Shown in pieces: positions 15,698-63,298 of a DNA stretch of 64,000 nucleotides; position 1 is the first letter of the stretch, and each line of letters opens with the position of its first letter. The stretch covers positions 96,001 to 160,000 of the forward strand of contig CAWJKT010000001.1 in assembly GCA_963843375.1 (NCBI GenBank), written 5' to 3'. Source of the DNA: an uncultured Pseudomonadota bacterium. GTDB taxonomy: Bacteria; Oederibacteriota; Muellerivitia; Muellerivitales; Muellerivitaceae. Both the position numbers and the translations under genes were made by a program. Under the pieces are notes generated by a model. It saw nothing but the letters and a program-made list of their open reading frames with translations, was not told where the DNA came from and did no database searches.

Positions 15698-15772
15698 TTT
15701 TTTAGGAGCGCCGTTCGCTGTTGACGAAATTGTCCCTCATGCAATGAGGGGCAACCTAAAGTTAGGCCGAGC

Positions 15773-15805: not shown

Positions 15806-15883
15806 AGGCGAGAATCTTTGAAAATGGAATTAGCAAAAGAGGGAAAAGGTGTCTTTAAACCCTGCAATCAATTGGGCCGGGCC

Positions 15884-27691: not shown

Positions 27692-27931
27692 GGGGTGAAA
27701 CTCCCTTCCTTTCGAATTGGATCGCTGTGGAAAAAGAAGTCCGATCCTCATTATCTCTATTGACCTGGATAAAATGAAACCAACTTGGTTTGTTCGATAA
27801 ACCCATTTGGGCCGAAAAAACTCGATCTCGTAAAAGCCCGGAATCCGAGCGGGGATTCATGTTATTATTATGAAATCTATGATATTGAAGCCCAGGGGTG
27901 AACCCCTGGTTATTGATTGGACGATCCTATA

Positions 27932-42601: not shown

Positions 42602-45600
42602 ATGAACGGGTCCTTTAAAATTTACATATCCCTTTTACGCAAAAACTTTAAAACGTTTTTTGTGCATTCGAGTTTTTTGTCTTTTTTGTGTCTTTTCTTC
42701 GTTTCTTTCACCGTTGTTCCTTCCGCACAGGCACAGTCACCCCAACTTAAAATCTCAGGTAATGAGGTCGTTAACGCCAGCAGTGGTTGTACGGTCCAAC
42801 TGAAGGGCGTGGACCTGTCCGGGTTGGAATACAGCCCCACCGGGGACACCGGAAGCGGTTATCCCACGACCGTCGTTGACGGCACGACCATGACCAATTA
42901 TGTAGCCATCATCACCGAGGCGATCAACGTATGGCACGCGAACTGTATCCGCCTTCCCATGAATCAGGATTTTTGGTTCGGTGGCTGTGGAAATTCCAAA
43001 GCCTCGGGCGAGAATCAAACGGCCTATAAAGACATGATCCAGGCCGTCGTGAATTATTGCTCCAGTAACAACGCCTATGTCGACTTGGATTTGCACTGGT
43101 CGGGCACCTCGGCCGTCACCACGGCACCTTGCGGAAGCGGATGGGGAACCGCCACCGGCCAAGAACCCATGCCGGACATGAATGCGGTGACATTTTGGTC
43201 CTCTGTGGCCTCCACTTACGCGAATAATTCAGCGGTCATGTTCGACCTTTATAACGAACCTTACGATCCAAGCGGAGACGACACCACATTTTGGGACGTC
43301 TGGCGCAATGGAGGATCCACGGGATCCGCTCCCGCCACCACGCCGGGACTCCAGGCACTGCTGACGGCGGTCCGTAACGCGGGAGCTAACAATATCGTGG
43401 TGGCGGGAGGCTTGAACTGGGCTTTTGACTTGAGGGGTGTCGTCGGCCAGGAAACAGGCAGCACCACGGCCTACGCCCTGACCGACACCGGTTCGGGTTA
43501 CGGGGTGCTTTATTCCTCCCATTGTTATTCAAGCAAAGGTTACACGGTGGGAAGCGGATGGGATCCCTATGTGACAATCGCCACTTCCACCGTACCCGTC
43601 ATCATTGAGGAATTTGGAGCCCAATCATCTGACCCCGCCGGTTGGGACAGCTCTGCCATCAGTTGGATTGAGGGAAACAACGATAAGAGTTACGTTTATG
43701 GGGGAATGGCTTGGAGTTTTACTCCCGACGACTCTCCCGACCTGTTGACGAGTTACACGGGGTTTACCACGACTTCTTATCATGGCGCCCCGGTTTCCAC
43801 TTGGTTGGCCGACCTCTATGAAACACCAACGCCTAATTGCTCAAGTGGCGGGAGTACACCAACTTTCACTTTTACACCCACTTCCACCTTCACAAAAACC
43901 AGTACGCCTAGTTTAACTAATACCCCCTCGAATACGCCTTCCTCAACAACTACATTAACCCGGACGAATAGCCCCACCCCTACTCCCAGCTACACAGCTA
44001 CCTCTACGGCCTCAAAAACGGTTACTCCCACTGTGACTAATACGACCACCTCAACCGCCACATTGACTAAAACGGCAACCGCCACTTCAACCCCAAGTTT
44101 CACGACCACGAATACCCCGGTTAGTACGGCGACTCAAACCGCGACGGCTACCGCTACTCGTACGGCTACCACAACAACCACCAATACCGCCAGCAATAGC
44201 CCGACGAATACTTCTTCATTCACGCCGACACAAACATCCACGAATACTTCCACTCACACTTCCACGGCGACCGCCACTGTTACTCCGGTCAATACCGCGA
44301 CCCAAACTGTGACAGCTACTACTACAGGAACCGCCTCCGCGACGGCCACCAATACAACCACCCGCACCCCCACCGGGACGCCCACTAATACCTTTGTCGA
44401 AACCGGGACGAATACGGCTATCAGTACCCCGACGGGCACGGCCACAAGCACGGCGACTAATACGTCAACATCCACTGCCACCAATAGCGCCACCAAGACG
44501 GCGACGAATACCACGACCCATACACCCACGAACACGTCGACTCAGACCCCTTCGAACAGCCCGACTTCCACCCCCACCGGGACGCCCACCAATACCTTTG
44601 TCGAAACCGCGACGAATACGGCTACCAGTACCCCGACGGGTACGGCCACAAGCACGGTGACTAATACGTCAACCTCCACTGCCACCAATAGCGCGACGAA
44701 AACAGTCACGAGTACTGTCACTAACACTTCAACGAATTCGGCGACCAATACCATTACCAACACAACCACGAACACGCCGACTCAGACCTCTTCAAATAGT
44801 CCGACTTCCACACCTTCCGTAACCCTCACCGGGACGCCCACCAATACCTTTGCCGAAACCGCGACGAATACGGCTACCAGTACCCCGACCGGTACGGCCA
44901 CAAGCACCTCGACTAATACGTCAACGTCCACTGTCACCAATACCGCGACAAAAACAGTCACGAATACTGTCACTAACTCATCAACGAATACGATCACTAA
45001 TACCGTCACCAACACACCCACGAACACGCCGACTCAGACCTCTTCAAATAGCCCGACTTCCACACCTTCCGTAACCCTCACCGGGACGCCCACCAATACC
45101 TTTGCCGAAACCGCGACGAAAACGGCCAGCAATACTCCCAGCAATACAGTCACATCCACTACCTCTTTCACGCCGACTTCGACGTCTTCATTGACTGCGA
45201 CTTCTACTGCCAGCTATTCACCCACTAAGACTCAGATTTACACCACAACCTCAACCACTACCTCTACCGCAACATTGACCTTGACCATTACGCCTACCTT
45301 CAGCCCCACGCCTGTGACCGTCGCGGCCTCGCAAGGGTCCAATCCGCCCGGGAATTCAACCCAAGTCCAAGGGGCTTCCGGCGTGACCATCCAACAGATT
45401 CAGATGAACAATCCCAGCGGCGGCGCGGTTACGATTACCAGTATCACGATCTTCGAGACAGGCGTTCCGCCCGCCGGGATCACTTCCCTTGATCTTTTCG
45501 CTAATGGAACGCTGATAGGCACGGCCAGCTTCAACGGGTCAACCGCCACCTTTAACTTCAACAGCGTTATTCCGGGGGACAATGGAGCGGTGACCTACGA

Positions 45601-46114
45601 GGTTACGGTGAATTTTTCTCCGGGATCATCAACGGGGAGTTATGAGTTTAGCGCGACGGGGGCGGCGGGAAGCAACGGCGAGGCCCTTCTCTTTAGCGGG
45701 ATTCCCGTGGCTGGCGCCACGGTCACTCTGGCGGCGGCCACGGCGACCGAAACGCCGACTTCAACGACGACACCTGTAGCGACCGGAACCTTTACGTCTT
45801 TGCCGACGGCGACCACCACCAAGACGGCAACCCCCTCGGCCAAACCGACGGTGGTGGTTTATCCGAACCCCGCCACGGGCGGAACGGTCCAGTTGAATCC
45901 GGATTTGACTTCTGAGTCGAACGTGAGCATCGAAATCTTCACGATCGCCTTCCGGAAAGTGAACACTTTGAATTATTCAAACATCCAACCGGGCGAAAGT
46001 GTGCCTATCCCCTTGAGTGATAGTTGGGGAACGCCCTTGGCCAGCGGGCTTTATTATGTTGTCGTGCAAACCAACCAGGGAAGAAGCGTCGTCAAACTCC
46101 TCATTCTGCATTAA
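42602..46114 (+). CDS. GH5 glycoside hydrolase + ~480-aa Thr-rich stalk + Ig-like domain + T9SS type-A-like CTD (copy 1)
   Basis: NCIRLP, DLDLHW, FDLYNEP (acid/base), HCY and IIEEFG (nucleophile). T-x-T tract at about 43850-45310. C-terminus VYPNP...IFTIAFRKV...LASGLYYV...KLLILH. Confidence 0.9.
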   Translation: MNGSFKIYISLLRKNFKTFFVHSSFLSFLCLFFVSFTVVPSAQAQSPQLKISGNEVVNASSGCTVQLKGVDLSGLEYSPTGDTGSGYPTTVVDGTTMTNYVAIITEAINVWHANCIRLPMNQDFWFGGCGNSKASGENQTAYKDMIQAVVNYCSSNNAYVDLDLHWSGTSAVTTAPCGSGWGTATGQEPMPDMNAVTFWSSVASTYANNSAVMFDLYNEPYDPSGDDTTFWDVWRNGGSTGSAPATTPGLQALLTAVRNAGANNIVVAGGLNWAFDLRGVVGQETGSTTAYALTDTGSGYGVLYSSHCYSSKGYTVGSGWDPYVTIATSTVPVIIEEFGAQSSDPAGWDSSAISWIEGNNDKSYVYGGMAWSFTPDDSPDLLTSYTGFTTTSYHGAPVSTWLADLYETPTPNCSSGGSTPTFTFTPTSTFTKTSTPSLTNTPSNTPSSTTTLTRTNSPTPTPSYTATSTASKTVTPTVTNTTTSTATLTKTATATSTPSFTTTNTPVSTATQTATATATRTATTTTTNTASNSPTNTSSFTPTQTSTNTSTHTSTATATVTPVNTATQTVTATTTGTASATATNTTTRTPTGTPTNTFVETGTNTAISTPTGTATSTATNTSTSTATNSATKTATNTTTHTPTNTSTQTPSNSPTSTPTGTPTNTFVETATNTATSTPTGTATSTVTNTSTSTATNSATKTVTSTVTNTSTNSATNTITNTTTNTPTQTSSNSPTSTPSVTLTGTPTNTFAETATNTATSTPTGTATSTSTNTSTSTVTNTATKTVTNTVTNSSTNTITNTVTNTPTNTPTQTSSNSPTSTPSVTLTGTPTNTFAETATKTASNTPSNTVTSTTSFTPTSTSSLTATSTASYSPTKTQIYTTTSTTTSTATLTLTITPTFSPTPVTVAASQGSNPPGNSTQVQGASGVTIQQIQMNNPSGGAVTITSITIFETGVPPAGITSLDLFANGTLIGTASFNGSTATFNFNSVIPGDNGAVTYEVTVNFSPGSSTGSYEFSATGAAGSNGEALLFSGIPVAGATVTLAAATATETPTSTTTPVATGTFTSLPTATTTKTATPSAKPTVVVYPNPATGGTVQLNPDLTSESNVSIEIFTIAFRKVNTLNYSNIQPGESVPIPLSDSWGTPLASGLYYVVVQTNQGRSVVKLLILH
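44371..45125 (+). repeat. Internal tandem repeat units in the Thr stalk
   Basis: CACCGGGACGCCCAC(C/T)AATACCTTTG(T/C)CGAAACC recurs at 44371, 44575, 44827 and 45079 (spacings 204, 252 and 252 bp, all in frame). Confidence 0.9.
44766..46109 (+). repeat. 1344-bp direct repeat, copy 1
   Basis: Matches 48458-49801 (offset 3692). The alternative-frame ORFs in the track are also identical. Confidence 0.95.
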
Positions 46115-46440
46115 AAATAACTTTAAAGTTTTAACCGAGAATCCAATCAAGAAGTGTTCGGCTTTCTCATTCTCATGTGGTTACCTACCTTTGCCTGCGG
46201 TAATAAAGTTCATTTAAAAATTAAACTATCTGGTTGAACGTGTTAGTTTTTTGATTTAACGGGTACTTCAAAGGACCTTTATTTTGGTCCCTTTGGGCTA
46301 TAAATATAAAAACATGATATATTTAATAAAACGATTTAATGCTTTGAAAAAGCGTTTTATCTAGCTTCGACAAAACTAATTGCGTTTTGTTGCGGATCGT
46401 TTCATTGCTTCTGAAGGCTTTAAAATTTAAAGGTGACACT

Positions 46441-49400
46441 TTGAACAAGTCTCCAAAAAAATTATCCTCCCAAACAAGAATGTTTTTGTTTGGCCCTTTC
46501 CTAAAAACGTTTCGGATGAAAACTAATTCTCCCTTTCTTTTACTTTTAATCTTTTTGTATTCCGCTTTTTTCGATTCAACCCCAGCGCAAGCCGCTCCAC
46601 CCCAATTGAAAGTTGTGGGTAACCAGATCGTCACCGCCAGCGGGGGATGCACCGTGCGATTGACCGGAGTAAATCTTGATTCTTTGGAATGGGAAGCCCA
46701 GCCGGGGGATGGTCCCAGTGGCGGCGACGGGGTTCTGACACAACTGCAGGAGGCGGTCAAATATTGGAACGTCAATTGCGTCCGCATTCCCCTGGATCAG
46801 GACTGGTGGGATGGAAACGCCCAAACTACCCCTAACAATCGGGGTTCCACCAGTCAATCGGGCTACCAAAGCTTCGTGGACTCACTTGTGGCCTTCTGCA
46901 ATACCAATAACATCTATTGCGATCTTGACCTGCAATGGTCCGGGGACGGGTCCACGGGTACAGCCACCGAGCAATATTCCATGCCCGATGAGAACAGCCT
47001 AGTCTTCTGGGCCAGTGTCGCGGCCCGTTACGCCAACAACACTTCCGTGATCTTTGACACCTTCAACGAGCCCTACCCAACTTCCTGGTCTGTCTGGTTG
47101 GATGGTGGTACGACCGCCGAGGGCTTTACCACACCGGGCTTGCAGGCAATCGTAAACAAGATTCGTGCCACCACCGCCAGCGCCAGCAGCACTCTGGCCA
47201 GCGGCACAAATGCCGAGAATGTTTGCATCGTCGGGGGCCAACAGTATTCCTATTATTACGTGGGCATGAGTCCAGTAGTGGATGTCACTGGGGGAAACGG
47301 CATCGTCTACTCGGCCCACATCTACAACAACAAAGGCACGAACACTGCCGCTGGATGGGAGTCCAATATCGAACCGGCTCTCACCTATGGACCGGTGTTT
47401 ATTGAGGAATTCGGCAACTCGGCCAATACCACCGACGGCGGCACTTTCGTGAACAGCGTGATTACCTTTATGAACGGTACCAACGACAAGAATTACATTT
47501 ATGGGGGAATGGCTTGGGACATGGATATTCAGGCGACGCCACTCCTACTTTCGGACTGGTCCTCAACTCTATCCGCACCTGTTTCCACAGGAACTACCGG
47601 CTGGGTGCTGACGTCTTACGAAGGACAATCGGTCTATGGCTGGCTGAAAGGCCTTACCTATCCCACCTGTTCCTCCAGCGGGGCTACCCCAACTTTCACC
47701 TTTACTCCAACCTCCACTTTCACAAAAACCAGCACGCCCAGTTTTACTAGTACCCCCACGAATACCTCTACCTCAACAGCTACTTTAACTCGGACGAATA
47801 GCCCCACCCCCACTCCCAGCAACACCCCCACCTCTACGGCCTCAAAAACGGTTACTCCCACTGTGACTAATACGACCACCTCAACCGCCACATTGACTAA
47901 AACGGCAACCGCCACTTCAACCCCAAGTTTCACGACCACGAATACCCCGGTTAGTACGGCGACTCAAACCGCGACGGCTACCGCTACCCGTACGGCCTCC
48001 GCAACAGCCACTAATACCCCCAGCAATAGTCCAACCAACACTTCTTCATTCACGCCGACTCAGACAGGCACAAATACTTTCACTTATACTTCTACGGGGA
48101 CCACCACGAGTACCCCGGTCAATACCTCTACTTTAACCGCAACCCGCACTTCAACCGCGACAGCCACTAACACCAGCAGCAACAGTCCAACATTTACTTT
48201 ATCCACAACGCCTAGTTCCACAGCCACGAATACCCCGGTTAATACGAGGACTCAGACTGTGACGGCTACCGCTACAGGAACGGCCACCGCGACGGTCACC
48301 AATACCGTTAGCAATAGCCCCACTAATACTTCTTCGTTAACGCCAACCGGGAGCGCTACGAACAGCCCCACCCGCACTTCCACAGAAACGGCCACCTATA
48401 CTTTGGTGAATACCGGAACCCCGACTTCGACGTCCACCAGCACTGTAACAGGATCAGCCACGAACACGCCGACTCAGACCTCTTCAAATAGTCCGACTTC
48501 CACACCTTCCGTAACCCTCACCGGGACGCCCACCAATACCTTTGCCGAAACCGCGACGAATACGGCTACCAGTACCCCGACCGGTACGGCCACAAGCACC
48601 TCGACTAATACGTCAACGTCCACTGTCACCAATACCGCGACAAAAACAGTCACGAATACTGTCACTAACTCATCAACGAATACGATCACTAATACCGTCA
48701 CCAACACACCCACGAACACGCCGACTCAGACCTCTTCAAATAGCCCGACTTCCACACCTTCCGTAACCCTCACCGGGACGCCCACCAATACCTTTGCCGA
48801 AACCGCGACGAAAACGGCCAGCAATACTCCCAGCAATACAGTCACATCCACTACCTCTTTCACGCCGACTTCGACGTCTTCATTGACTGCGACTTCTACT
48901 GCCAGCTATTCACCCACTAAGACTCAGATTTACACCACAACCTCAACCACTACCTCTACCGCAACATTGACCTTGACCATTACGCCTACCTTCAGCCCCA
49001 CGCCTGTGACCGTCGCGGCCTCGCAAGGGTCCAATCCGCCCGGGAATTCAACCCAAGTCCAAGGGGCTTCCGGCGTGACCATCCAACAGATTCAGATGAA
49101 CAATCCCAGCGGCGGCGCGGTTACGATTACCAGTATCACGATCTTCGAGACAGGCGTTCCGCCCGCCGGGATCACTTCCCTTGATCTTTTCGCTAATGGA
49201 ACGCTGATAGGCACGGCCAGCTTCAACGGGTCAACCGCCACCTTTAACTTCAACAGCGTTATTCCGGGGGACAATGGAGCGGTGACCTACGAGGTTACGG
49301 TGAATTTTTCTCCGGGATCATCAACGGGGAGTTATGAGTTTAGCGCGACGGGGGCGGCGGGAAGCAACGGCGAGGCCCTTCTCTTTAGCGGGATTCCCGT

Positions 49401-49806
49401 GGCTGGCGCCACGGTCACTCTGGCGGCGGCCACGGCGACCGAAACGCCGACTTCAACGACGACACCTGTAGCGACCGGAACCTTTACGTCTTTGCCGACG
49501 GCGACCACCACCAAGACGGCAACCCCCTCGGCCAAACCGACGGTGGTGGTTTATCCGAACCCCGCCACGGGCGGAACGGTCCAGTTGAATCCGGATTTGA
49601 CTTCTGAGTCGAACGTGAGCATCGAAATCTTCACGATCGCCTTCCGGAAAGTGAACACTTTGAATTATTCAAACATCCAACCGGGCGAAAGTGTGCCTAT
49701 CCCCTTGAGTGATAGTTGGGGAACGCCCTTGGCCAGCGGGCTTTATTATGTTGTCGTGCAAACCAACCAGGGAAGAAGCGTCGTCAAACTCCTCATTCTG
49801 CGCTGA
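46441..49806 (+). CDS. GH5 glycoside hydrolase + Thr-rich stalk + Ig-like domain + T9SS type-A-like CTD (copy 2)
   Basis: NCVRIP, FDTFNEP, HIY and FIEEFG. The TTG start at 46441 is inferred from homology of AAAGGTGACACTTTGAAC with AAAGGGGACACCATGAAC of copy 1. Confidence 0.9.
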   Translation: MNKSPKKLSSQTRMFLFGPFLKTFRMKTNSPFLLLLIFLYSAFFDSTPAQAAPPQLKVVGNQIVTASGGCTVRLTGVNLDSLEWEAQPGDGPSGGDGVLTQLQEAVKYWNVNCVRIPLDQDWWDGNAQTTPNNRGSTSQSGYQSFVDSLVAFCNTNNIYCDLDLQWSGDGSTGTATEQYSMPDENSLVFWASVAARYANNTSVIFDTFNEPYPTSWSVWLDGGTTAEGFTTPGLQAIVNKIRATTASASSTLASGTNAENVCIVGGQQYSYYYVGMSPVVDVTGGNGIVYSAHIYNNKGTNTAAGWESNIEPALTYGPVFIEEFGNSANTTDGGTFVNSVITFMNGTNDKNYIYGGMAWDMDIQATPLLLSDWSSTLSAPVSTGTTGWVLTSYEGQSVYGWLKGLTYPTCSSSGATPTFTFTPTSTFTKTSTPSFTSTPTNTSTSTATLTRTNSPTPTPSNTPTSTASKTVTPTVTNTTTSTATLTKTATATSTPSFTTTNTPVSTATQTATATATRTASATATNTPSNSPTNTSSFTPTQTGTNTFTYTSTGTTTSTPVNTSTLTATRTSTATATNTSSNSPTFTLSTTPSSTATNTPVNTRTQTVTATATGTATATVTNTVSNSPTNTSSLTPTGSATNSPTRTSTETATYTLVNTGTPTSTSTSTVTGSATNTPTQTSSNSPTSTPSVTLTGTPTNTFAETATNTATSTPTGTATSTSTNTSTSTVTNTATKTVTNTVTNSSTNTITNTVTNTPTNTPTQTSSNSPTSTPSVTLTGTPTNTFAETATKTASNTPSNTVTSTTSFTPTSTSSLTATSTASYSPTKTQIYTTTSTTTSTATLTLTITPTFSPTPVTVAASQGSNPPGNSTQVQGASGVTIQQIQMNNPSGGAVTITSITIFETGVPPAGITSLDLFANGTLIGTASFNGSTATFNFNSVIPGDNGAVTYEVTVNFSPGSSTGSYEFSATGAAGSNGEALLFSGIPVAGATVTLAAATATETPTSTTTPVATGTFTSLPTATTTKTATPSAKPTVVVYPNPATGGTVQLNPDLTSESNVSIEIFTIAFRKVNTLNYSNIQPGESVPIPLSDSWGTPLASGLYYVVVQTNQGRSVVKLLILR
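48458..49801 (+). repeat. 1344-bp direct repeat, copy 2
   Basis: Matches 44766-46109. Identity ends in the last codon (H vs R). Confidence 0.95.
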
Positions 49807-49874
49807 TTCACCAAGAAAAGACGAATCCATGCGGAGTCTTTAGGCCGAATTTGGCGGCGAATTTGTTTAGGCAG

Positions 49875-51938
49875 CTAACGATTTTGGGGTGGAGAAAGGG
49901 ATTGAAGGGCTTGAACTGCCTGGGCGTGGTTGGGATTTAAACTTAGTGTTTTTTCCCATAATTTCCTGGCATCAGCTTCATTTCCCGCCTGGTAAGCCGC
50001 CATCCCTTCATAATAATAGGCGTCCGGATCGTTAGGGTCGATTGACACGGCTTTCGCAAACCAGTTCCCGGCTTGCTTCAAATCCCCCATGGAAAAGTAA
50101 TCAATGCCAACGTTTACGGCGTACCCGGGGTTTTGGGGATCCCAGCTCTGCACCCATAAAAGATGGGAGAGACTTTTTTCATATAAGGACCGGACCTGTT
50201 GAAGCCGGGAAGAAGGGGAGAGTCTCGTCTGGATCTTCAAGGCCTGGGCTTCACCCATCCCTTGAACAGCCATCCATAAGCGCGCCATCCCATAATCCTT
50301 CAGGAAATAGTCCCATGAAACATCGTCCACCGAGTCATAGGGTTTTTGGAAATTCCTTAAGCGCATTTTATCCCACAGACGGTCGGCCCTCGCCTCGTCA
50401 AAGACGGGATTAGCAGGAGGCACAAACCCCTCTTGGGTCAATCCATTTGGAACCAGGCGAATTTCTCCCAACCCGTCCGCTTCCAAATCCGGATAAGTGA
50501 AAAAGAATCTGTGCCCGGGATTTTGATCCAACATCCATTGGAAAAGATGGCCCGAGATGTATTCCTTACCCTTCTCGTGGCGGGGATAAGGAATTTTCAA
50601 TCCGGGTTGGGTACGGGCCAAATAAATCCGATACCAATCCATCGGAAGGCTTCCGCCACCCAGGACAGCTAGATCGGGTCTTTTTTGTTCGATCATTTGA
50701 AAATACCAACAGGGAAAATCTAAGACGTCCCCCTTACAAAAGAAAAAACCTCCCACGGGGACAGAACGCCAGGCGTTCAAAACGTAATCGTAGGTATAGG
50801 TATAAAATTCCTGATTTCCCTGAACCCAGCGGGCGAGAACGAGGGCCAACACCAGGGCCCAGGCGAAATAGGGGGCGGTTTTGACAGCCTTCGGATGGCT
50901 GGGGCCAAAAAGTCGTAGGAGAAAACGGAAGCCCAGGCCTGAAAAGAGCGGAATAAAGATAAAGGAAGCGATGGAATAATTTTGCATGAGGTAAATTTTT
51001 TGGCTGGAGAATTTGGAGAACACACACACGGCCGCGAAGAGACCCGCCCAAGAAAGTAGCAACCCCGCCATATGACGACGCTCACCGCGCCATGCGGCGA
51101 AAAAACCGAAAATAACCAAAATCCCAACTCCGGAAAATTCCACCGCCGCCGAGCGCAAGTAATAAAAACCCTGCTGTGCCCACAAAAAGACGTCCCCCGT
51201 AAAATCCTTGTTCTTGTCCACGTAACGGGTCACATGGCGCAGAAAATTCTGGACATCCACTGGATGGGCCCAATTGACCAGCGGATCCAGGGATGACCTG
51301 AGAGGCAGGTAAAGATAAAGGGAAAGGCCGATGGTCAAGAAAGCTGCGCTTTTGATAAGGTCCTTGGCTGCCACTTCCCGTTTGCTCAGTTGGATCCAGA
51401 CCAGGAAGGTAAATCCACCTCCGGCCGCCAACATGCTCATCCAATGGTTACCTAGGGACAACCCGAAAAGGAAAAAAGCCAAGGACCGTCTTCCCCGAAA
51501 AAGAGCGCCTAAGACCGCTAAAAGGAAAACAGCCGTCAATTGGTATATCCCGTTTTTGGCGCTCAAGGCGGCCGGGTAAGCGGTGGCTCCGGCCATCCAA
51601 AGCAGGGCGAAAGGAAGACTTAGAGAATGCTCCATGTTGAAACGATCTTTCAGAAACCGAAACAGTAAGTAGCAGGCCAAGGCCCCCGTGAATGCCGAAA
51701 GCAGATTGACCCGAAGACAAACTGGCCCGAGGGGCAAAAGGGAAAATAGGCGGCCCAACAGCGTAAAAAGCGGATAACCAGGTGGATGGGCAATGCCCAG
51801 AGACGCCGAAACGGTGATAATTTCCGGACTGTCATCCATATAAAAGGAAGGGTTTAGGCCTACAAGGGCCAGTTCAAAAGCCAGGAGAAAAAGCAGGATT
51901 CCGGGAAAGAAGCTTTTTTCATTCAACCACTTATCCAC
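49875..51938 (-). CDS. DUF2723 / TMEM260-like GT-C membrane glycosyltransferase with C-terminal TPRs
   Basis: DDSPEI...LGIAHPPGYPLF.LLGRLF, RVNLLSA, GLSLGNH, YLYLPLRS...NW..P, GD...FPCWYFQ..E..RPD and TPR helices. Confidence 0.85.
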   Translation of the reverse strand: MDKWLNEKSFFPGILLFLLAFELALVGLNPSFYMDDSPEIITVSASLGIAHPPGYPLFTLLGRLFSLLPLGPVCLRVNLLSAFTGALACYLLFRFLKDRFNMEHSLSLPFALLWMAGATAYPAALSAKNGIYQLTAVFLLAVLGALFRGRRSLAFFLFGLSLGNHWMSMLAAGGGFTFLVWIQLSKREVAAKDLIKSAAFLTIGLSLYLYLPLRSSLDPLVNWAHPVDVQNFLRHVTRYVDKNKDFTGDVFLWAQQGFYYLRSAAVEFSGVGILVIFGFFAAWRGERRHMAGLLLSWAGLFAAVCVFSKFSSQKIYLMQNYSIASFIFIPLFSGLGFRFLLRLFGPSHPKAVKTAPYFAWALVLALVLARWVQGNQEFYTYTYDYVLNAWRSVPVGGFFFCKGDVLDFPCWYFQMIEQKRPDLAVLGGGSLPMDWYRIYLARTQPGLKIPYPRHEKGKEYISGHLFQWMLDQNPGHRFFFTYPDLEADGLGEIRLVPNGLTQEGFVPPANPVFDEARADRLWDKMRLRNFQKPYDSVDDVSWDYFLKDYGMARLWMAVQGMGEAQALKIQTRLSPSSRLQQVRSLYEKSLSHLLWVQSWDPQNPGYAVNVGIDYFSMGDLKQAGNWFAKAVSIDPNDPDAYYYEGMAAYQAGNEADARKLWEKTLSLNPNHAQAVQALQSLSPPQNR

Positions 51939-54309
51939 CTTGCGCCCCTTGGGGACGGGGTCGATTCAGAAATCGGTCATTTCCCCATCCCTGCCATAAC
52001 CAGGCAAAGAGATAAAGCAGAAGGGAAACGGATGAAATCCATTTTCCAATCTCAAAGGCCGCCGGCTCAAACTTTAAAATGAAATGGTGGTTTCCGGCGG
52101 AAAGCGGGATGGCACGGCCAAAATAATCACCCGGCATCACCTCGTAAGTTTGCTGAACACTGTTGGGATAAGCGATGGCTTTCCATCCCCGGCTAAAGTT
52201 ATCGGTAATCATAAGAATTTGCGGTTTATCCGTTTGGACGTGGAATTCCATCCTATCGGTTGTTTGGTCCTCCAGTGAAACCTGCCCCTTACCTGAATTT
52301 TCCTCCGGCAATATGGCTGGAGTTTTTTCTAGGACGACTTCAGCTCCAGGGTCGAAGCCCGAACGAGAAATAGTTTCCATCGCTTCTTTCGGGTCTCCCG
52401 CGAATTTCCATCGCCCGACTAAAAAGGCGCGGGGTAGGCGGGGATAGGGAAGGGAGGTTATATGAAGGCCGTCGCTCTTGGTGTCCAACATGTAGGCAAG
52501 CCGGACCAAGCGAATTTTTGGAAGGGTGAGATTGATCTTTTGGGTATCAGGCGAGGAGGATGGTTCCGGCAGGGGGTTTCCCGTGTAGGTCATGAAATAA
52601 TTGTAACGCTTGGGAAGCAAGGGATCATCGCCCCAAATATCCGGTAACCCCATGGAAAGAGAACGGTCGTCATGTGCGGTCCAATAAATCCGCCCCTCTC
52701 CAAGATGGGGGGATAAGGTTTTTTGAACAGCGGATTCCCTTGATTTCATTCCTTGGGCGTTAAAAGTCGGAAGATTGGCTCCCGCAAAGGCCCACAAATT
52801 CGCCATTCCCAAAATGGCCAGAGCATATTTTCTTGCCTTCCCAACGGAAGTCCAAATCCAGAGCAGCGCGAAAATAAGGGAAAAGACGGAAGCACCGGCC
52901 AAGTTAATGATTCGTGCGGTATCGATCTGGAGGAGGTACTGTGGGTATTGAGGCGAAAAGGGTTCGGAATTATTCCAAGCGACTATAGCGGAAAAACTTC
53001 CCAATCTGGATCCCTGGAAAACCAAAAAGGAAGCGCCTCCGAAAATGAGGGCTAGGCCAAAGGCCGAGTAAGCTGGCCAGTTTTTTTGCCGAGAATCGAA
53101 TAGCCAAGCATGAATCCCTCTCGCCGCGAGAAAGGCGAAAGCCAATTGGAAAAAAATGCCAAACTTGAAACTCCCCCGAAAGGAATCGAAGAAAGGAATC
53201 CATTCGTTCAGGAGAGGGAAAAGGGGAGTGTAAGAACCGAAAGCCAGTAAAAGGGATAAAAGAGCCAGCCCCATCAAAGTCCACTTTTTTCCTTGAGGAC
53301 CTTCTCTTTGAATAAGTCCGTAAATCGCCATTAGGAAAGCGATAATTCCGATAAAAAGGCAGGACTCCCACCAAATCCGCGAATCGGCCCAGCAGAATAA
53401 ACGCGTCCCCTTTCCGCCCAAACCCGATGCCAAAACCGTCAATGAGTTCAATGGATTTAGGGAAAAGAATCGTTGGAACTCCGGGGAAGCGGCGCTTTCC
53501 CGAAGGTTTTCCCCTGTGGCCTCCAAGCCCGAAAGCCATTGGATGGAAGTAATCGCCGATCCCATCAGAAGCATGGCCAGCCCATGAAAAACTTTTTTAA
53601 AACGGTTTTCCGGATTCCGGAAAAGGAGGAGCAGGGCGTAAAGCCCGCTTAGGAACAGGGTATAAGCAAAGTATTGGGCGTGGCCTGATAAGAGTTGAAA
53701 GGAAAAGACTCCCGCGCTGATTAGAACATTTTTTAATTCCGGTTTTTCCAGGAGAGTTTCCACCGAGAGAAAGACCAGTGGGATCCAGGCCATGGTACAA
53801 AGGTTAGGTAAGTGGCCGGGGTAGACGTGTAGGAAATAAGCCCCGCCAAACATGTAGACGAAGGACCCGAACAATGAGGCCAGGAAACCCAAGCGGTTCG
53901 CGGCCAGCCAAAGATAGGTAAAAAAACCCGCCAGAAAAACGTGTAAGACAATGGAAAAGTTCAAGGCGAAAACCAAGGGCAAAAATAGAAAAAGCCAATT
54001 GGGGGGATAAAGGAGAGCGGACTGGAAACCGGCAAAGAAAGGCGCCCCGCAATAGATGAAGGGATTCCAGAGCGCCAAATGACCTTTGCGCAGTTCCGAA
54101 AAACCAAAGTCGCGCCAAGCGTAAAACTGGTTGGCCAAATCGCCGTCGGCTATGGAAACCAGAGTGTTTTCGGAAAAGAGGACCTGGGCGAAAAGAATGA
54201 GGACCGATCCTCCTAAGACTAGGGCCGCCAAGGCTTTCCTTTTTTTGGCGGAGGAGAGGAACCATAAGTGTAGGTTTTCAAAAGGAAGCGAGGAGTTTTC
54301 TTGGTTCAT
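51931..54309 (-). CDS. YfhO-like GT-C membrane protein
   Basis: GDLANQFYAW...GHLALWNPFIYCGAPFFA..QSALLYP.NWL, multi-TM, LPRAFLV and C-terminal DNFSRGWKA...RAIPLSAGNH.FILKFEP. Overlaps the start of the DUF2723 gene. Confidence 0.8.
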   Translation of the reverse strand: MNQENSSLPFENLHLWFLSSAKKRKALAALVLGGSVLILFAQVLFSENTLVSIADGDLANQFYAWRDFGFSELRKGHLALWNPFIYCGAPFFAGFQSALLYPPNWLFLFLPLVFALNFSIVLHVFLAGFFTYLWLAANRLGFLASLFGSFVYMFGGAYFLHVYPGHLPNLCTMAWIPLVFLSVETLLEKPELKNVLISAGVFSFQLLSGHAQYFAYTLFLSGLYALLLLFRNPENRFKKVFHGLAMLLMGSAITSIQWLSGLEATGENLRESAASPEFQRFFSLNPLNSLTVLASGLGGKGTRLFCWADSRIWWESCLFIGIIAFLMAIYGLIQREGPQGKKWTLMGLALLSLLLAFGSYTPLFPLLNEWIPFFDSFRGSFKFGIFFQLAFAFLAARGIHAWLFDSRQKNWPAYSAFGLALIFGGASFLVFQGSRLGSFSAIVAWNNSEPFSPQYPQYLLQIDTARIINLAGASVFSLIFALLWIWTSVGKARKYALAILGMANLWAFAGANLPTFNAQGMKSRESAVQKTLSPHLGEGRIYWTAHDDRSLSMGLPDIWGDDPLLPKRYNYFMTYTGNPLPEPSSSPDTQKINLTLPKIRLVRLAYMLDTKSDGLHITSLPYPRLPRAFLVGRWKFAGDPKEAMETISRSGFDPGAEVVLEKTPAILPEENSGKGQVSLEDQTTDRMEFHVQTDKPQILMITDNFSRGWKAIAYPNSVQQTYEVMPGDYFGRAIPLSAGNHHFILKFEPAAFEIGKWISSVSLLLYLFAWLWQGWGNDRFLNRPRPQGAQGG

Positions 54310-54557
54310 GAAACCGCCGTAAAAAAGGATGGCTTATTATAAGTGTCCTTCTTGGGAAAGGTTTTTAAGAATTGTGAAAAATTAAGATGATGAAAAGTAT
54401 TCGAACCAGACTTTTCCCCGTGGCCCTTTAAAATATTGAATAAGGTTAGGGAGGTTCCGGCATCTTTAACTATTTTTAGGCGTATAATGACGCCGGATTT
54501 CAGTTGAAGGACGGTTTTTCTACAGTGAAATAGGTAGTCAATGAAAGAAATGAAATT

Positions 54558-56474
54558 ATGACTCTTCCCTCCGTCCAAGAAAGTGTTTCTCCAACCAAGG
54601 ACTCCCTTTCATTTTGGGCAGTCGCTTTACTTCCCGCCATTCTGACATTTTTGTTTTACCTGCCGGTTTTAAAAAACAACTTCGTGACCTGGGACGATCC
54701 ACAGATGATCCAGGATAATCCCTATATCCGCAGTTTCAGCCTGGAATCCATTGGTGGGATGTTTAAGAATTTTTACGCGGCAAACTGGATACCCCTTACC
54801 TGGCTTTCACTGGCCCTCGATTTCAAGTTGGGGGGCTTGGATCCCTTCATCTACCATTTAGATAACCTGATTTTGCATTGCTGCAACACGGCGCTTGTTT
54901 TTTTTCTTGGCGTTAGGATTCTGGCAATCCCGGGGAAGGGACTGGAGCGGGAAGGGAGTCCAGCGGGGTGGGTGACACCAGCGGCTTTTTTGACGGCCCT
55001 CTTGTTTGGTCTTCACCCCATTCATGTGGAGTCAGTGGCTTGGGCCACCGAACGAAAGGACATGCTCTTTGGTATTTTCTATCTTTTGAGCCTCCTGTTT
55101 TACTTGGATTACTCGTCGGCCTCCAGCCAGAAGGTTTGGAAGTTAAATGTCTGCCTTTTTCTCTTCGTGATGTCCCTTTTGTCCAAGCCCATGGCCGTCA
55201 CACTTCCCTTCGTCTTGCTTCTTTTTGATGTTTGGCCCTTGAATAGGTTTTCCTCCAGCCCCAAAAAGATTTTGTTGGAAAAACTTCCTTTTTTTATACT
55301 CGCTTTGATATCGGGATGGATGACCATGCTTGCCCATTTCCACGAAGGTCCCGCACCTACCACCCGAGATTTGCCCCTGGATTATCGAGTTATGAATGCG
55401 TTTCATTCGCTTGTTTTTTATTTGGTGAAAATGGTTGTTCCCGTAGATTTGGCGACGCTTTACCCGATCGTTTTATTGAAAACTTTTTCCCTCGAGTATG
55501 TGGCTGCGTTTTTAGCGGTTATTTTAATAAGCGGAATTTGTTTTCGTTACCGCAAGAAACGGCCCTATCTAGCAGCTGCTTCAATATATTATTTGGTCAC
55601 CCTTGCCCCCACATTAGGAATTGAATACGCAGGAGGCTATGCGGCGGCGGACCGGTTTACTTATCTTCCAAGTTTGGGTCCCTTTTTGCTTTTGGCCTCG
55701 GTTTTGGCTTTTGGCCTTTCAAGCCGCCGTTTCCTTTTTAACTTTTTGGTCGCGGGGTTAACGGTTCTCCTGGGGTTGGGGACCATTCAGCAAATAGGAA
55801 TTTGGAAGAATTCGATCAGCCTTTGGGAGAACGTGGTTAAAGTTGCTTCACCATACGTTCCCGACATCATTTACGAACATTTGGGGGACGCTTATATGTC
55901 CGCAAGTCAATGGGATGACGCCTTAGGGGCCTTCAATTCTGCTCTGGCCAACGCCCCTGAAAATGCAGGTTTGCATGAAAAAAAAGGAATCACTCTTATC
56001 AACAAGGGTTTACTTCCCGAATCCGCCAGCGAGTTTAAACTGGAATCCGCACTTGATCCCCAAAATGCCATGGCCCACCGGTATCTTTATTTCGCCAACC
56101 AAAAAATGGGTCATTACCCGGAAGCCTTGGCGGAGGCCCAGGAAGCGGTTCGATTAAACCCAAAGCTTCCAGGCGTCTATAACAGCCTGGGGGCTGCTTA
56201 TTCTTCGATGGCTCAATATGAAAAAGCAGCTGAGGCTTTTGAATCGGCGCATTTAATAGATCCCACGGACACCGGATGTTTAATGAATTTGGCCTCGATT
56301 TATGCCGCTACTGGAAAAATCGCCGAAACGATTAAAATTCTCAATGAGGCTGCCGCTTTACAGCCCCAGAATCCAGATATCTACCAAAGACTGGGTCAGG
56401 CCTATGAAAAAGCGGGGGATCAAAAATCGGCGACGGAGGCTTTCGCCACCGGCAATAGTTTGGCGGGGAAATAG
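54558..56474 (+). CDS. TMTC-like GT-C glycosyltransferase with TPR repeats (copy 1)
   Basis: NNFVTWDD...I.DNP.IR, W.PLTWLS, HPIHVESVAWATERKD, LLSKPMA, ADRFTYLPS and WKNSISLW, followed by TPRs. Confidence 0.88.
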   Translation: MTLPSVQESVSPTKDSLSFWAVALLPAILTFLFYLPVLKNNFVTWDDPQMIQDNPYIRSFSLESIGGMFKNFYAANWIPLTWLSLALDFKLGGLDPFIYHLDNLILHCCNTALVFFLGVRILAIPGKGLEREGSPAGWVTPAAFLTALLFGLHPIHVESVAWATERKDMLFGIFYLLSLLFYLDYSSASSQKVWKLNVCLFLFVMSLLSKPMAVTLPFVLLLFDVWPLNRFSSSPKKILLEKLPFFILALISGWMTMLAHFHEGPAPTTRDLPLDYRVMNAFHSLVFYLVKMVVPVDLATLYPIVLLKTFSLEYVAAFLAVILISGICFRYRKKRPYLAAASIYYLVTLAPTLGIEYAGGYAAADRFTYLPSLGPFLLLASVLAFGLSSRRFLFNFLVAGLTVLLGLGTIQQIGIWKNSISLWENVVKVASPYVPDIIYEHLGDAYMSASQWDDALGAFNSALANAPENAGLHEKKGITLINKGLLPESASEFKLESALDPQNAMAHRYLYFANQKMGHYPEALAEAQEAVRLNPKLPGVYNSLGAAYSSMAQYEKAAEAFESAHLIDPTDTGCLMNLASIYAATGKIAETIKILNEAAALQPQNPDIYQRLGQAYEKAGDQKSATEAFATGNSLAGK

Positions 56475-56499
56475 AAATTAATTGAAAGGATAAAGGGGT

Positions 56500-58653
56500 T
56501 TGTCCAAGGACAATAAAATAAATTATATCCTGAGAAAAAGACACCTTTCGCTTCGTGAATTGTCGGCCCAAACGGGGCTCGCTGAAACGAAAGTCGCCCA
56601 AATTCTCGAAATGGAGAATCCGGAAAAGGCTTCAACGATCGCCTTGCCCGGTTTTCTGCAAGGTAGGAAAGGCACCTTATGGGCTTGCGCGATATTTTTG
56701 GCGCTGATCGTGGTCGCTTTTTACCTTCCGGTTCTGAAAAATGATTTCGTCAATTGGGACGACAAGGACAATATTACGGATAACCTTCGAATCAGGAGGC
56801 TCGACTGGGATTCGCTAGGTTGGATGTTTACGACCTTCGCCACCGGGAATTGGATGCCTCTTACCTGGCTGTCTTTCGCCCTTAATTACGGAGTAAACGG
56901 ATTAGACCCCCGGGTGTTCCACGCCACTAATGTCTTATTACACGCATTAAATACCGTATTGGTTTTCTTTATTTGCTTTCGCTTGATGAAACATCTTCCC
57001 GAAAAAGCCGGGTCCGCATCCACCCTCAAAATCAAGGGCTTTGGAGTGCCCATCGCTTTCATGACGGCCATTCTGTTCGGACTCCATCCCATCCATGTGG
57101 AATCGGTGGCTTGGGCCACGGAACGCAAAGACGTGCTTTATGCCTTATTCTACCTCTCGGCCCTGTGGCTATATTTGGACGACTCTTCCTCCCTCGAGAA
57201 AAAGGGCTTCAAACACTGGGCCTGCTTGGGGTTTTTTCTGCTGGCCCTGATGTCCAAACCCATGGCCATTACGCTTCCGTTTATTTTCCTGATTCTCGAT
57301 GGCTGGCCCTTGGGTCGATGGAGTTTGGGTTTCCAAAAATTGTTGAAAGAGAAGGCGGTTTTTTTCGCTGTTGCTGGGGGAGCAGTCCTCGTCACAATGG
57401 CTTCGCATGAAAAAACCCTTTCCTATGCCAAAAGCGGAGTCGAGTTTTATTGGGTGATGAATTCATTCCGGTCGCTTGTATTTTATCTTACGAAAATGGT
57501 CTGGCCCGAGGGGTTGACCACTTATTATCCTTTCCCACCCAGTTTGAGCGGTTTCTATTTGTTCGAAAATTTTTGTGCGGCGGCGGCGGTGATCCTGGTT
57601 TCAGTCCTTTTTTTTCGTTACCGCCAAAAGGCACCCTATCTTTTGACGGCCTGGCTTTATTATGTCGTCATCCTTTTACCGGTCGTAGGACTCATCCAGA
57701 CAGGAAGCCAAGCCGCTGCCGACCGCTATACATATTTGGCCAGCCTGGGCTTGTTCCTACCTCTTTCGGCAGGGTTGGCTTTATTGGTTTCTTACCGTTG
57801 GATTCTTTACGCGGGATTCATATTCCTGGCCACTGTTTTGATGGGCTTGGCAACGATGGACCAGATCGGAACATGGAGAAATTCCCAGACCTTATGGGAA
57901 AGGGTGACTCAAATTTATCCCGCCGAAAACCCAATGGCTTATTCCAAGTTGGGGGAAATTTATCTCAAGGCCCACCGGTATGACGACGCGCTGGATGTCT
58001 ATAGCCGGGCGGCGGCCATTCCTCCGGCGCTGGCACCGACCTTCAACGGATTGGGAAGGGCCTTTTTGTACAAAGATAGAGTTCCGGAGGCGGTTCAGGA
58101 ATTTGAATATGCGCTTAAGCTGGATCCTCAATTCACCTTGCCTCGTCTCAATCTTTGGACGGTTTACGAACGACAAGGTCGGCACGAAGAAGCTATCGGG
58201 CAAATGCAATTAGCCCTTAAAATCGAACCCAATTCACCTTTGTTCTACAACGATCTCGGAGTAAGTTACGGCTTTTTGAAAAGGAATGAGGAGGCGCGAA
58301 TGGCGTTTGAAAAAGCCCACCGCCTGGATCCGGATAATTCCGAATACCTGGTCAACCTCGCCACCATTTACGTGTGGCAGGGAAAACCCGAAAAGGCCTT
58401 GGAGTGGTACCGCGGAGGAATCCACCTGCACCCCCGGGAGCCGGTTTATTACTTGAAGATGGCGGATATTTACCTATCCCAGGGGTTGAAGGCAAAGGCT
58501 TTGGAGAAGCTCCGCACGGCTTGGGTCTTGGATCCCGCTAGTCCTAAATTAATCCAGGAATTGGGGGAGGACTTTGAGAAGGCCGGGCAAACCGGTTTGG
58601 CCAAACAATGCATTGCCAAGGCCCAGTCCATGGTGGTTAGGATAAAACCATAA
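56500..58653 (+). CDS. TMTC-like GT-C glycosyltransferase with TPR repeats and N-terminal HTH-like extension (copy 2)
   Basis: NDFVNWDD, HPIHVESVAWATERKD, SKPMA, ADRYTYL and WRNSQTLW, followed by TPRs. Confidence 0.88.
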   Translation: MSKDNKINYILRKRHLSLRELSAQTGLAETKVAQILEMENPEKASTIALPGFLQGRKGTLWACAIFLALIVVAFYLPVLKNDFVNWDDKDNITDNLRIRRLDWDSLGWMFTTFATGNWMPLTWLSFALNYGVNGLDPRVFHATNVLLHALNTVLVFFICFRLMKHLPEKAGSASTLKIKGFGVPIAFMTAILFGLHPIHVESVAWATERKDVLYALFYLSALWLYLDDSSSLEKKGFKHWACLGFFLLALMSKPMAITLPFIFLILDGWPLGRWSLGFQKLLKEKAVFFAVAGGAVLVTMASHEKTLSYAKSGVEFYWVMNSFRSLVFYLTKMVWPEGLTTYYPFPPSLSGFYLFENFCAAAAVILVSVLFFRYRQKAPYLLTAWLYYVVILLPVVGLIQTGSQAAADRYTYLASLGLFLPLSAGLALLVSYRWILYAGFIFLATVLMGLATMDQIGTWRNSQTLWERVTQIYPAENPMAYSKLGEIYLKAHRYDDALDVYSRAAAIPPALAPTFNGLGRAFLYKDRVPEAVQEFEYALKLDPQFTLPRLNLWTVYERQGRHEEAIGQMQLALKIEPNSPLFYNDLGVSYGFLKRNEEARMAFEKAHRLDPDNSEYLVNLATIYVWQGKPEKALEWYRGGIHLHPREPVYYLKMADIYLSQGLKAKALEKLRTAWVLDPASPKLIQELGEDFEKAGQTGLAKQCIAKAQSMVVRIKP

Positions 58654-58921
58654 AAATTTTTTATGGTTTCTGGTGTAGGCCTTGGCTTCAATCTAAGATT
58701 TTCATTTCATTCAAAAATCCTGGTTTAACGGGAAATTCAGGGTAATAAATATGGGGAAATTAGCCATGTATTTTTTGGACAAGAACTGATTAATATTGTA
58801 AAAGTGTGAGATACTTCTTAAGTAATAGCCATTTTAACCGTTAATATCGTTATAAGGTAATCGATCAATACTCTTACGACATCAAAATTCAGATTAAATG
58901 TGAATGTTATAGTAATGACAA

Positions 58922-58937
58922 ATGGAACCGGTTTCAT
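58922..58937. promoter_or_regulatory. LacI-family operator-like palindrome
   Basis: ATGGAACCGGTTTCAT has one mismatch from a perfect palindrome and fits TGnAAnCGnTTnCA. It lies about 120 bp upstream of the giant gene. Confidence 0.6.
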
Positions 58938-59055
58938 CTCTTAGTTCTTCAGAGGAACTTATTTTGAAATGAGGTTTACCAAAATTTATGATCTGATCCC
59001 GATCATTGAAGGTTTGGTTAGCCTAATTTATTGTTAAGTGAGTGAAAGACAAGAA

Positions 59056-62000: not shown

Positions 62001-63298
62001 TACACCCCCGATGTCGGTTTCGATGAATAAACAGGTTTCCTCGACAACGGCCCAATCGGGCAATAACTTGACTTACACCCTCAATATCACCGTCTCCGGG
62101 AACAGTGCGCAGAACCTGGTGGTGAATGACACCTTGCCCACGAATGAAACCTTCCTAGGGTTCCTCGCCAGCCCAGCGGGGACGACCACCAATTCCACCG
62201 CGACGGGTCTATTAACCTGGAACCTGCCTTCGCCCCTTGCGGCGGGGAGCTACCAACTGGAATATCAGGCGCAATTGAATAATTTACTCACGGCCGGCAG
62301 TACCCTTATTAATAACGCCCAATTAACCTACCTGGGAGGCGCCCCGGTGACGGCCAGCGTGGGAGTATTGGTGATAGGGCAATACACGGTCAAAATCGGG
62401 GTCTATAACGAGGCGGGAGAATTGGTGGATACGATCCTTACGGAACAACTCTCCCAACCTATCGATAATATTGTGCTCCAATCCAGTAATGCCATCACCA
62501 GTTTGAACGGGCCCAATAATGCTGTGACGATTTATTACGACAATAGCCCCTTGGGGAGTTGGAATGGGACGAATTCCAATGGAAGCCTGGCTTCCAACGG
62601 GGCCTATTACGTGAAGGTGGACAGCATCAGTTCTATGGGAACCGAAGTGAGCACGACGCAGCAGGTGATGGTCAACCGGACGCTTTATACGTCGACGATC
62701 CTGATTTACAACGAGGCAGGGGAAGTGGTGAAACACTTATATGCCTATTCCGATGACCCAGGCCAAGCCGGTGTGGCATCGGTGCAATTATCATCCTCCG
62801 TAATAGAACCGGGTCTCGGCTCAAGCCCGGGTACGCCTAGCGACCTGACAATAACCTTAAGCAATGGAACAACCGAGGTGTGGGACGGGACGAATGACAG
62901 CGGTTCCTTTGTGCAAAGCGGTGAATATTTGGTGGAAGTCCACACGACGGACGGAACTGGCGGGGAAACCACGGTGATAAAAGAAGTATCGGTGGAAGAC
63001 CAAAATACGGCCAAAGGAATGGGAGTAGTGACGGCTTGGCCCAATGTTTTAAACCCTTCCGAAGGTCTGACGACGACTTTTCATACCAACGTATCCATGA
63101 ATTTGACGTTGGAGGTGTCTGTTTACACGGTTGCGGGTGAACTGGTCCACCAGGTGACTGGCGGCACAGGAACCGGCCAAGTGACATGGAATGCTTCCGG
63201 TGTGGCAAGCGGCACCTATTTGGCGGTGGTTCAGGTTTTCAACTCCACTGGCGGGCTAATGGGCCGGGCAAACCCTCAAACTGGCCGTCTTCCATTAA
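59056..63298 (+). CDS. Giant secreted adhesin-like protein: Cys-rich DD beta-sandwich head, DUF11, ~610-aa Thr stalk, DUF11, two FlgD-Ig-like domains, T9SS type-A-like CTD
   Basis: Signal ending VQA. DUF11-like NK...LTYT.....N/G...V.D.L twice, a T-x-T tract at about 60175-62010, and two YNEAGE.V...W.GTN..G..(A/V)..G.Y.V repeats. Removing one G at about 63267 gives the ending [15 protein letters not shown] (63296-63298), like the other CTDs. Confidence 0.85.

Follow-up and report, generated by a model that had tools for sequence, protein, structure and literature searches.

TMEM260 and TMTC1-4 are disease-linked O-mannosyltransferases of animals whose bacterial homologues number in the thousands, and our literature searches found no paper assigning a substrate to a bacterial TMTC or DUF2723 (TMEM260-type) homologue, in agreement with a preliminary description of the DNA analyzed here. 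We examined a stretch of 64,000 nucleotides (hereafter the window; C1:96001-160000) in the genome of an uncultured soil bacterium of FCPU426/Goldbacteria, an uncultured phylum that has been tied to cellulose degradation (PMC7031533). In this window, four genes for GT-C membrane enzymes, three of which are bacterial relatives of the animal protein-mannosylating enzymes as judged from their sequences, lie between genes for three secreted proteins with long, threonine-rich stalks. As a source of the first substrates of TMEM260/TMTC-type enzymes in bacteria, the locus is a good but unproven candidate. The host genome comprises 4.05 Mb in 32 contigs, with a completeness estimate of 80%.

Actinobacterial Pmt enzymes, which belong to a different GT-C family (GT39) and carry a MIR domain and no TPR, use polyprenyl-phosphate-mannose to mannosylate secreted proteins, cellulases among them, on their Pro/Thr-rich linkers. 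In animals, TMEM260 is described as the protein O-mannosyltransferase of IPT domains (PMC10214176). The structural report on the human enzyme assigns the donor site to D52 and H67, phosphate binding to R264, phosphate/sugar binding to Y267, a lesser role to R355 and the role of catalytic base to D441 in the luminal Rossmann-like domain, and gives the TPR as necessary and sufficient for binding an extended peptide whose prolines recur at regular intervals (bioRxiv 10.64898/2026.03.17.711096). In bacteria, teichoic acids are glycosylated by the YfhO homologues of Bacillus and Listeria (cited in PMC12041528), and the streptococcal YfhO-family enzymes PgtC2 and PgfM1, which work with GtrB or PgfS, have been proven to O-glycosylate Ser/Thr-rich disordered regions, the pgf cluster also encoding its own Thr-rich adhesin substrates (PMC12041528); given this streptococcal protein O-glycosylation, the view that YfhO acts solely on lipids or teichoic acids is outdated. 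TfpW of P. aeruginosa, a 646-residue GT-C enzyme whose N-terminus is cytoplasmic and which has 11 transmembrane (TM) helices by prediction, a DDx motif and a C-terminal TPR in the periplasm, adds D-arabinofuranose oligomers to a folded pilin whose gene adjoins its own (bioRxiv 10.1101/2020.04.19.049825). GT-C enzymes encoded beside Ser/Thr-rich substrates in Firmicutes, and beside pilins, are already known.

Seven long open reading frames (ORFs) were confirmed between window positions 42602 and 63318, each where the preliminary description had placed it:

P0001, 42602..46114, + strand: secreted GH5 cellulase with a Thr-x stalk, a beta-rich module and a type-IX-like tag
P0002, 46387..49806, + strand: second GH5 cellulase, with a 479-residue stalk and a type-IX-like tag
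P0004, 49875..51938, - strand: GT-C enzyme of TMEM260/DUF2723-like type, having a Rossmann-like domain and C-terminal TPR
P0005, 51931..54309, - strand: GT-C enzyme, distant member of the YfhO family, ending in a beta-sandwich and a last TM helix
P0006, 54558..56474, + strand: TMTC-like GT-C enzyme with ~11 TM helices and a TPR tail of ~200 residues
P0007, 56500..58653, + strand: paralogue of P0006 with a helix-turn-helix (HTH)-like N-terminal extension, directly upstream of P0003
P0003, 59038..63318, + strand: secreted adhesin-like protein with a 654-residue Thr-x stalk, FlgD_ig-type beta-sandwiches and a type-IX-like tag

ORFs, domains and folds agree with the earlier account of four GT-C genes in two divergent pairs (window 49875-58653), three of them encoding TPR tails, and the acidic first-loop motifs MDDSPE (P0004), ADGD (P0005) and WDD (P0006 and P0007) are present as written there.

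The assignment of P0004 as TMEM260-like proved firm. The protein matches PF11028 (E 9e-20; 71.6 bits against a cut-off of 24.2) and carries TPR in addition, and HMMER aligned its residues 13-453 with residues 29-490 of human TMEM260 (PDB 9rql; E 3.6e-20). Four of the six functional residues are kept (P0004/TMEM260 pairs D36/D52, H51/H67, R238/R264 and D404/D441), D36 falling within the MDDSPE motif. R238 and D404 are invariant in all 10 FCPU426-family sequences compared (five host paralogues and five orthologues), and D36 and H51 in 9/9, one orthologue ORF being without its N-terminus. P0004 shares with human TMEM260 (PDB 9rql/9rqm/9rqn; PMC10214176) the GT-C and Rossmann-like domains, these four residues and a terminal TPR, whereas it differs in its bacterial host, in its ~8 paralogues per genome, in leaving Y267 and R355 unmatched, and in its candidate acceptor, which is a mucin-like stalk instead of an IPT domain. 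Because the host is a bacterium, the donor would have to be a bacterial polyprenyl-phosphate sugar.

P0005 itself gave no Pfam match and no significant sequence match in the PDB, and its proposed YfhO-like nature is upheld by way of its homologues and its fold. PF09586 (YfhO) was matched by 17 of 32 aligned homologues (best E 1.4e-12), and when an AlphaFold2 (AF2) model of P0005 (pLDDT 87, pTM 0.90) was compared with solved structures, all 20 chains with Z ≥ 8.4 were GT-C enzymes, the next chain scoring 7.5; the highest values were those of AglB (22.0 over 418 residues), AftD (20.7), STT3 (20.6) and PglB (19.3). D57 of the ADGD motif is conserved in ≥ 90% of homologues. The logic proposed for P0005 is the same as in streptococcal Pgf (PgfS/PgfM1/PgfE/PgfM2) and GtrB/PgtC2, where a YfhO-family GT-C enzyme moves a sugar from undecaprenyl-phosphate-sugar to extracytoplasmic Ser/Thr-rich disordered regions. 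Those systems, however, occur in Gram-positive hosts, employ the YfhO family alone and encode the undecaprenyl-phosphate-sugar donor synthase within the cluster, whereas the present locus belongs to a diderm-looking host, combines three GT-C families and has no synthase gene nearby.

P0006 (638 aa) and P0007 are 42% identical and are the only two members of their family in the host genome. The membrane domains of the two gave no Pfam match even at E up to 10 (for P0006, residues 1-430, PF08409/DUF1736 included), and that of P0006 gave nothing significant in a sequence search against the PDB; Foldseek, run with the P0006 model against the PDB, returned TPR proteins only among the matches listed. 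In the AF2 model (pLDDT 88), the helices fit 11 TM segments, after which TPR sets in at about residue 419, and a wide VIA-align search gave Pmt1-Pmt2 as the best structural match of the membrane domain (Z 19.2 over 337 residues), ahead of Pmt4 (Z 18.6) and then AglB, STT3, ALG12, ArnT and PglB; the resemblance to yeast Pmt1/2 and Pmt4 is one of fold only. The P0006 family has more than 5221 homologue matches and bears the JGI name 'protein O-mannosyl-transferase' on 18 of the 120 matches listed, and an Atlas look-alike search lists a eukaryotic DUF1736 cluster at 0.91, which serves as a lead only.

We checked the TMTC motif set M1-M7, as tabulated in Table 4 of PMC7801869, on 32 P0006 homologues. 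The DD of M1 (D46/D47), D168 of the M3 RxD and Y369 of M7 are invariant, while R166, D365 and R366 (M3/M7) are conserved in ≥ 90%; the LLFxxHPIHxE...RxD block of P0006/P0007 is spaced identically to TMTC3 residues 118-145, and their (D/E)RxxY motif precedes TM10. The remaining motifs are kept in part: P79 alone of M2 (SHKSYRP), the first proline alone of M6 (PxxP), and K210 and T215 of M4 (KE(T/Q)xxT), whose glutamate is replaced by proline. No DW motif (M5) is conserved among the P0006 homologues at its expected place in the TM7-TM8 loop. P0006 and P0007 are, on sequence and model, TMTC-like in architecture and core chemistry and not Pfam-defined members of DUF1736; the earlier TMTC-like assignment stands with respect to motifs, fold and architecture, though with the DUF1736 signature missing. 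They have the ~11 TM helices, C-terminal TPR, DD, HPIHxE...RxD and (D/E)RxxY of animal TMTC1-4; unlike these, P0006 has no DUF1736, and no TMTC structure is among the solved chains matched to its model. Prokaryotic TMTC homologues are no more than noted in PMC7801869. P0006 also has the size and architecture of TfpW.

P0007 begins with a conserved extension of ~40 residues (residues 1-50; window 56500-56650) that is HTH-like and predicted to be cytoplasmic. The extension is common to 11 homologues of ~717-728 residues, with the consensus ...EELSxQTGLSxxQVxKIL... and invariant G26 and V32; Pfam gave a weak match (HTH_35, E 0.01), and one homologue bears the JGI name of an XRE-family HTH regulator. 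It would be unusual for a GT-C enzyme to carry a DNA-binding head.

The genes flanking the enzymes encode, as first described, three secreted stalk proteins with beta-sandwich modules: each has a signal-peptide-like N-terminus, a stalk and a C-terminal tag. P0001 and P0002 are GH5 proteins (PF00150, E 1.5e-26 and 1.6e-22, respectively), an identity that the preliminary description lacked and that we add here; the true start of P0002 is probably an internal Met. The stalks measure 529 (P0001, residues 396-924), 479 (P0002) and 654 residues (P0003), which bears out the presence of long Thr stalks but shifts the span of 440-610 residues given before to 479-654 by the criterion of this analysis. 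They consist of 40-44% Thr and 8-13% Pro with ~3% charged residues, and their threonines alternate with other residues, 76-86% of stalk Thr being followed by another Thr at position +2. Over their last 456 residues, P0001 and P0002 have 99% identity (window 44741-46111 vs 48433-49803), whereas their GH5 heads are 38-62% identical, which suggests recent gene conversion or exchange of a module made up of stalk plus anchor. The N-terminal domain of P0003 was not recognised, and an Atlas search with it gave no usable match; the P0003-type C-terminal module occurs in 11 copies in the host genome and is present in 30 of 31 family genomes.

A type-IX-like export route is plausible for these proteins from their sequence signatures. 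TIGR04183 matched the C-terminus of P0001 with 26.6 bits against a 23-bit cut-off and was above cut-off for P0002 and, in the genome search, for P0003. The host genome contains 26 Por_Secre_tail matches; matches to SprA (TIGR04189) were partial and located on contig C15, and those to PorV (NF033710) were partial or below cut-off. Together, the type-IX-like tags and the SprA-like matches make the host look diderm. Bacteroidota have an O-glycosylation system with the sequon D(S/T)(A/I/L/V/M/T), and we considered it as a decorator of the stalks; with just one to four sequons per flanking protein, it would not explain stalk decoration and was rejected.

The preliminary description called for a test of cluster conservation, and in the case of this particular cluster the enzyme genes do keep their place beside stalk genes. 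We compared the host (G000) with family and phylum relatives (G001-G046) and found the orthologous P0005-P0004 gene pair in five genomes of three genera (G000, G001, G045, G022 and G012). In all five, the DUF2723 gene and a stalk gene converge, their 3' ends lying anywhere from a 14-bp overlap to a 68-bp gap apart, while the heads of the adjoining stalk proteins vary (GH5, S8 subtilase with NHL, no Pfam match, or FlgD_ig only). The P0007-type gene adjoins a P0003-type gene in G000, G001 and G045, and the two are 3 kb apart in G022. G045 repeats the whole layout, with three stalk genes, opposite-strand DUF2723 and YfhO-like genes, a P0007-type gene and an orthologue of P0003; G001 has the cluster in two blocks 13 kb apart, each flanked by stalk genes; and G010 has a co-directional row of YfhO-like, stalk, YfhO-like and TMTC-like genes with gaps of 0-266 bp. 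A stalk gene lies within ~5.3 kb at 6 of the 13 TMTC-like loci compared. L042, L043 and L045, which hold P0005-like paralogues from a different subgroup, have neither a DUF2723 nor a stalk gene next to these.

Alternating Thr-x tracts are a trait of the lineage. The host genome contains 3725 matches to a (Thr-x)10 DNA pattern, compared with 158 for the reversed control, and all 31 family genomes have such matches (354-16025, reversed controls 0-158). Tracts were also found in 11 of 16 genomes from other families of the phylum, with none in families f4 and f5.

This analysis establishes folds, family relationships, the conservation of functional residues and a conserved position next to stalk genes. 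We give about an even chance to the explanation that the four enzymes O-glycosylate the extended Thr-x stalks in the periplasm, for which we infer acceptor, donor sugar, compartment and order of events as follows. The four GT-C enzymes would sit in the inner membrane with their catalytic loops and their TPR or other luminal domains facing the periplasm, an orientation that is plausible, sidedness being deduced. Their donors would be polyprenyl-phosphate-linked single sugars, products of GT2 synthases whose genes lie elsewhere in the genome, and they would transfer these sugars to Thr hydroxyls of the extended, Pro-containing stalks of Sec-exported proteins before these leave through an SprA-like pore of type-IX type. 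The TPR tails may hold the unfolded stalk, by analogy with the TPR of human TMEM260 on its extended Pro-rich peptide, and the cluster would probably serve stalk proteins in general, beyond its three neighbors.

The sugar cannot be read from sequence and the cluster has no donor-synthase gene, so mannosylation, the term used in the preliminary description, is not supported. The genome-wide search for a polyprenol-phosphate-mannose synthase (GT2) that it had called for did yield candidates, at least seven GT2 genes of the polyprenyl-phosphate-hexose-synthase class (AglJ/ArnC/PgfS/PpgS class), some of which, on contigs C3 and C8, have other GT-C paralogues close by; all fall below equivalog cut-offs and none lies in the window, which leaves mannose unsupported. 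Seven of these candidates lie at C8:4185-4889, C8:9141-9860, C8:25292-26218, C3:5666-6469, C3:18145-18876, C7:86592-87299 and C9:280777-281532. From these matches, it is plausible that GT2 donor synthases are encoded elsewhere in the genome.

A number of observations weigh against stalk glycosylation by these enzymes, for which the case is genomic and structural rather than chemical. Some concern the locus itself. TMEM260 Y267 aligns with D241 of P0004 and R355 with N320, both in a stretch of low-confidence alignment; of the TMTC features, P0006 lacks the glutamate of M4, the His/Lys of M2 and the loop signature of DUF1736; the window contains no donor synthase gene, and the cluster no flippase or sugar-nucleotide gene; P0003 has its own promoter-like site; and the GH5 genes converge on the GT-C genes and are therefore not transcribed together with these. 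Others emerge at the scale of the genome and the phylum. Stalks of at least 30% Thr over 150 residues are carried by 81 host ORFs, 54 of which reach ≥ 40% Thr, so dedication of the enzymes to their three neighbors is rejected, and the 'dedicated' pathway of the preliminary description is weakened. Its expectation of enrichment near stalks was not borne out either: 5 of 21 host GT-C paralogues (DUF2723, P0005-like and TMTC-like at E < 1e-10) have a stalk gene no more than 5 kb away, four of them in this cluster, against 17% at random as estimated from 2.2-kb intervals. Tracts also occur in all eight family genomes that have no TMTC-like genes (E up to 1e-20), and TMTC-like copy number and tract count are weakly correlated across 31 related genomes (Spearman 0.41), a value that is overstated because the genomes are kin. 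The conserved adjacency could itself be inherited synteny, and stalk density is ~4x higher in G012 and G022, making chance flanking likelier there; both limit the weight of the adjacency counts. A rival reading has the enzymes act on unrelated acceptors, such as envelope glycans, lipids or other periplasmic or surface proteins like pilins, and owe their place among stalk genes to the commonness of stalks in the lineage and an inherited arrangement, an alternative that we consider a real possibility, though a tentative one. It gains from the ~8 DUF2723 and 11-15 YfhO-like paralogues of the host, mostly distant from stalk genes; from the tract-free families f4 and f5, which carry 3-16 DUF2723 copies and YfhO-like genes, f4 also having TMTC-like ones; from G036, with 2375 tracts and no match for any of the three enzyme families; from the teichoic acid-modifying YfhO homologues of Bacillus and Listeria cited by PMC12041528; and from the presence of Wzy_C+TPR, PMT_2+TPR and PBP genes in the neighboring loci of relatives. 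It fits less well with the retention in P0004 of the acceptor-activating Asp of a protein-specific enzyme, with a stalk-gene neighbor that is kept across three genera while its head domain changes, with the stalk gene inside the operon-like row of G010, and with the location of both P0006 and P0007, their family's only host members, at this locus.

The enzymes might instead glycosylate a few Ser/Thr sites on folded or folding beta-sandwich domains (Ig-like, FlgD_ig or DUF11) and leave the stalks bare. Beta-sandwich modules follow the stalk in all three flanking proteins, the P0003-type C-terminal module adjoins TMTC-like genes in G000, G001, G010, G024, G045 and G043, and the animal enzymes are described as domain-specific and not mucin-directed, cadherin domains being the acceptors of TMTC and IPT domains those of TMEM260 (PMC10214176, PMC11292533). 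That module, however, has 10-18 copies in most family genomes and is found in 30 of 31, including those without TMTC-like genes, an abundance that brings its adjacency to TMTC-like genes to only about twofold above a rough expectation. Moreover, TMEM260 is reported to bind an unfolded, extended, Pro-spaced strand (bioRxiv 10.64898/2026.03.17.711096), which stalks fit better, and we regard beta-sandwich acceptors as very unlikely. A bolder version of stalk glycosylation, which we think rather unlikely, has the three GT-C families form a joint periplasmic 'mucin factory', each recognizing the Thr-x stalk through its TPR or luminal domain and adding its own sugar. In such a system, hundreds of Thr per protein would come to bear a one-sided glycan brush ahead of type-IX-like export, and through the HTH-like N-terminus of P0007-type enzymes the glycosylation load might be coupled to how the neighboring stalk gene is transcribed. 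If true, it would give the TMEM260 and TMTC families their first substrates in bacteria and would suggest that the domain-specific O-mannosyltransferases of animals descend from bacterial glycosylators of extended peptides.

The genomic association between enzymes and stalks is partial, and the locus supplies co-encoded candidate acceptors in the form of simple (Thr-x)n peptides that are easily testable. Were stalk glycosylation by these enzymes true, ~5% of the host genome would encode mucin-like glycoproteins, and cellulases would be borne on glycan-stiffened stalks in a phylum associated with cellulose (FCPU426/Goldbacteria; PMC7031533).

With respect to gene organization, the genes for P0005 and P0004 look like an operon, as they overlap by 8 bp; those for P0006 and P0007 are spaced by 25 bp, and P0004 is convergent with P0002, with 68 bp between their 3' ends. 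Sigma-70 promoter-like sites (8 vs 16.1 in shuffles) and terminator-like sites (19 vs 26.3) were both fewer than in shuffled sequence, and the scan does not settle operon boundaries; the best promoter-like site (10/12) lies 46 bp upstream of P0003, in the 384 bp that precede this gene. The label of an island was abandoned, and with it the idea of horizontal acquisition, because GC content (0.46-0.56) is not distinct from that of the genome (~0.50) and no mobility genes were seen in the window.

Elsewhere in the window, a fifth GT-C gene encoding PMT_2 with a C-terminal PA14 (24877-27024) lies 23 kb upstream of the cluster, beside an 803-residue ORF (27917-30328) that has no Pfam match and whose C-terminus matches Por_Secre_tail in the genome search. 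Cytochrome P450, phosphoglucose isomerase and GH2 glycosidase genes (3869-5210, 11088-12381 and 36948-39848) are each broken into 2-4 ORFs, likely reflecting assembly indels or pseudogenes. Beyond the window, 11 kb past its end, a membrane GT2 gene comes directly after a tandem of three YfhO-like genes (C1:171039-178969), an arrangement that looks like a separate lipid-linked glycosylation module.

Another family of ~640-residue proteins adjoins TMTC-like genes in G012, G022 and G045. Its members have 5-8 predicted TM helices, an acidic first-loop motif and no Pfam GT-C match; copies are found at L035:15291-17213(-) (8 TM helices), L004:14413-16335, L003:6995-8908 and L002:13833-17718, and in the host genome at C9:193995-195920 and C31:9896-11815. 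Three of six scanned copies gave a weak C-terminal TPR match, those of L002 and L016 giving none, and from these features the family is probably another unannotated GT-C+TPR family.

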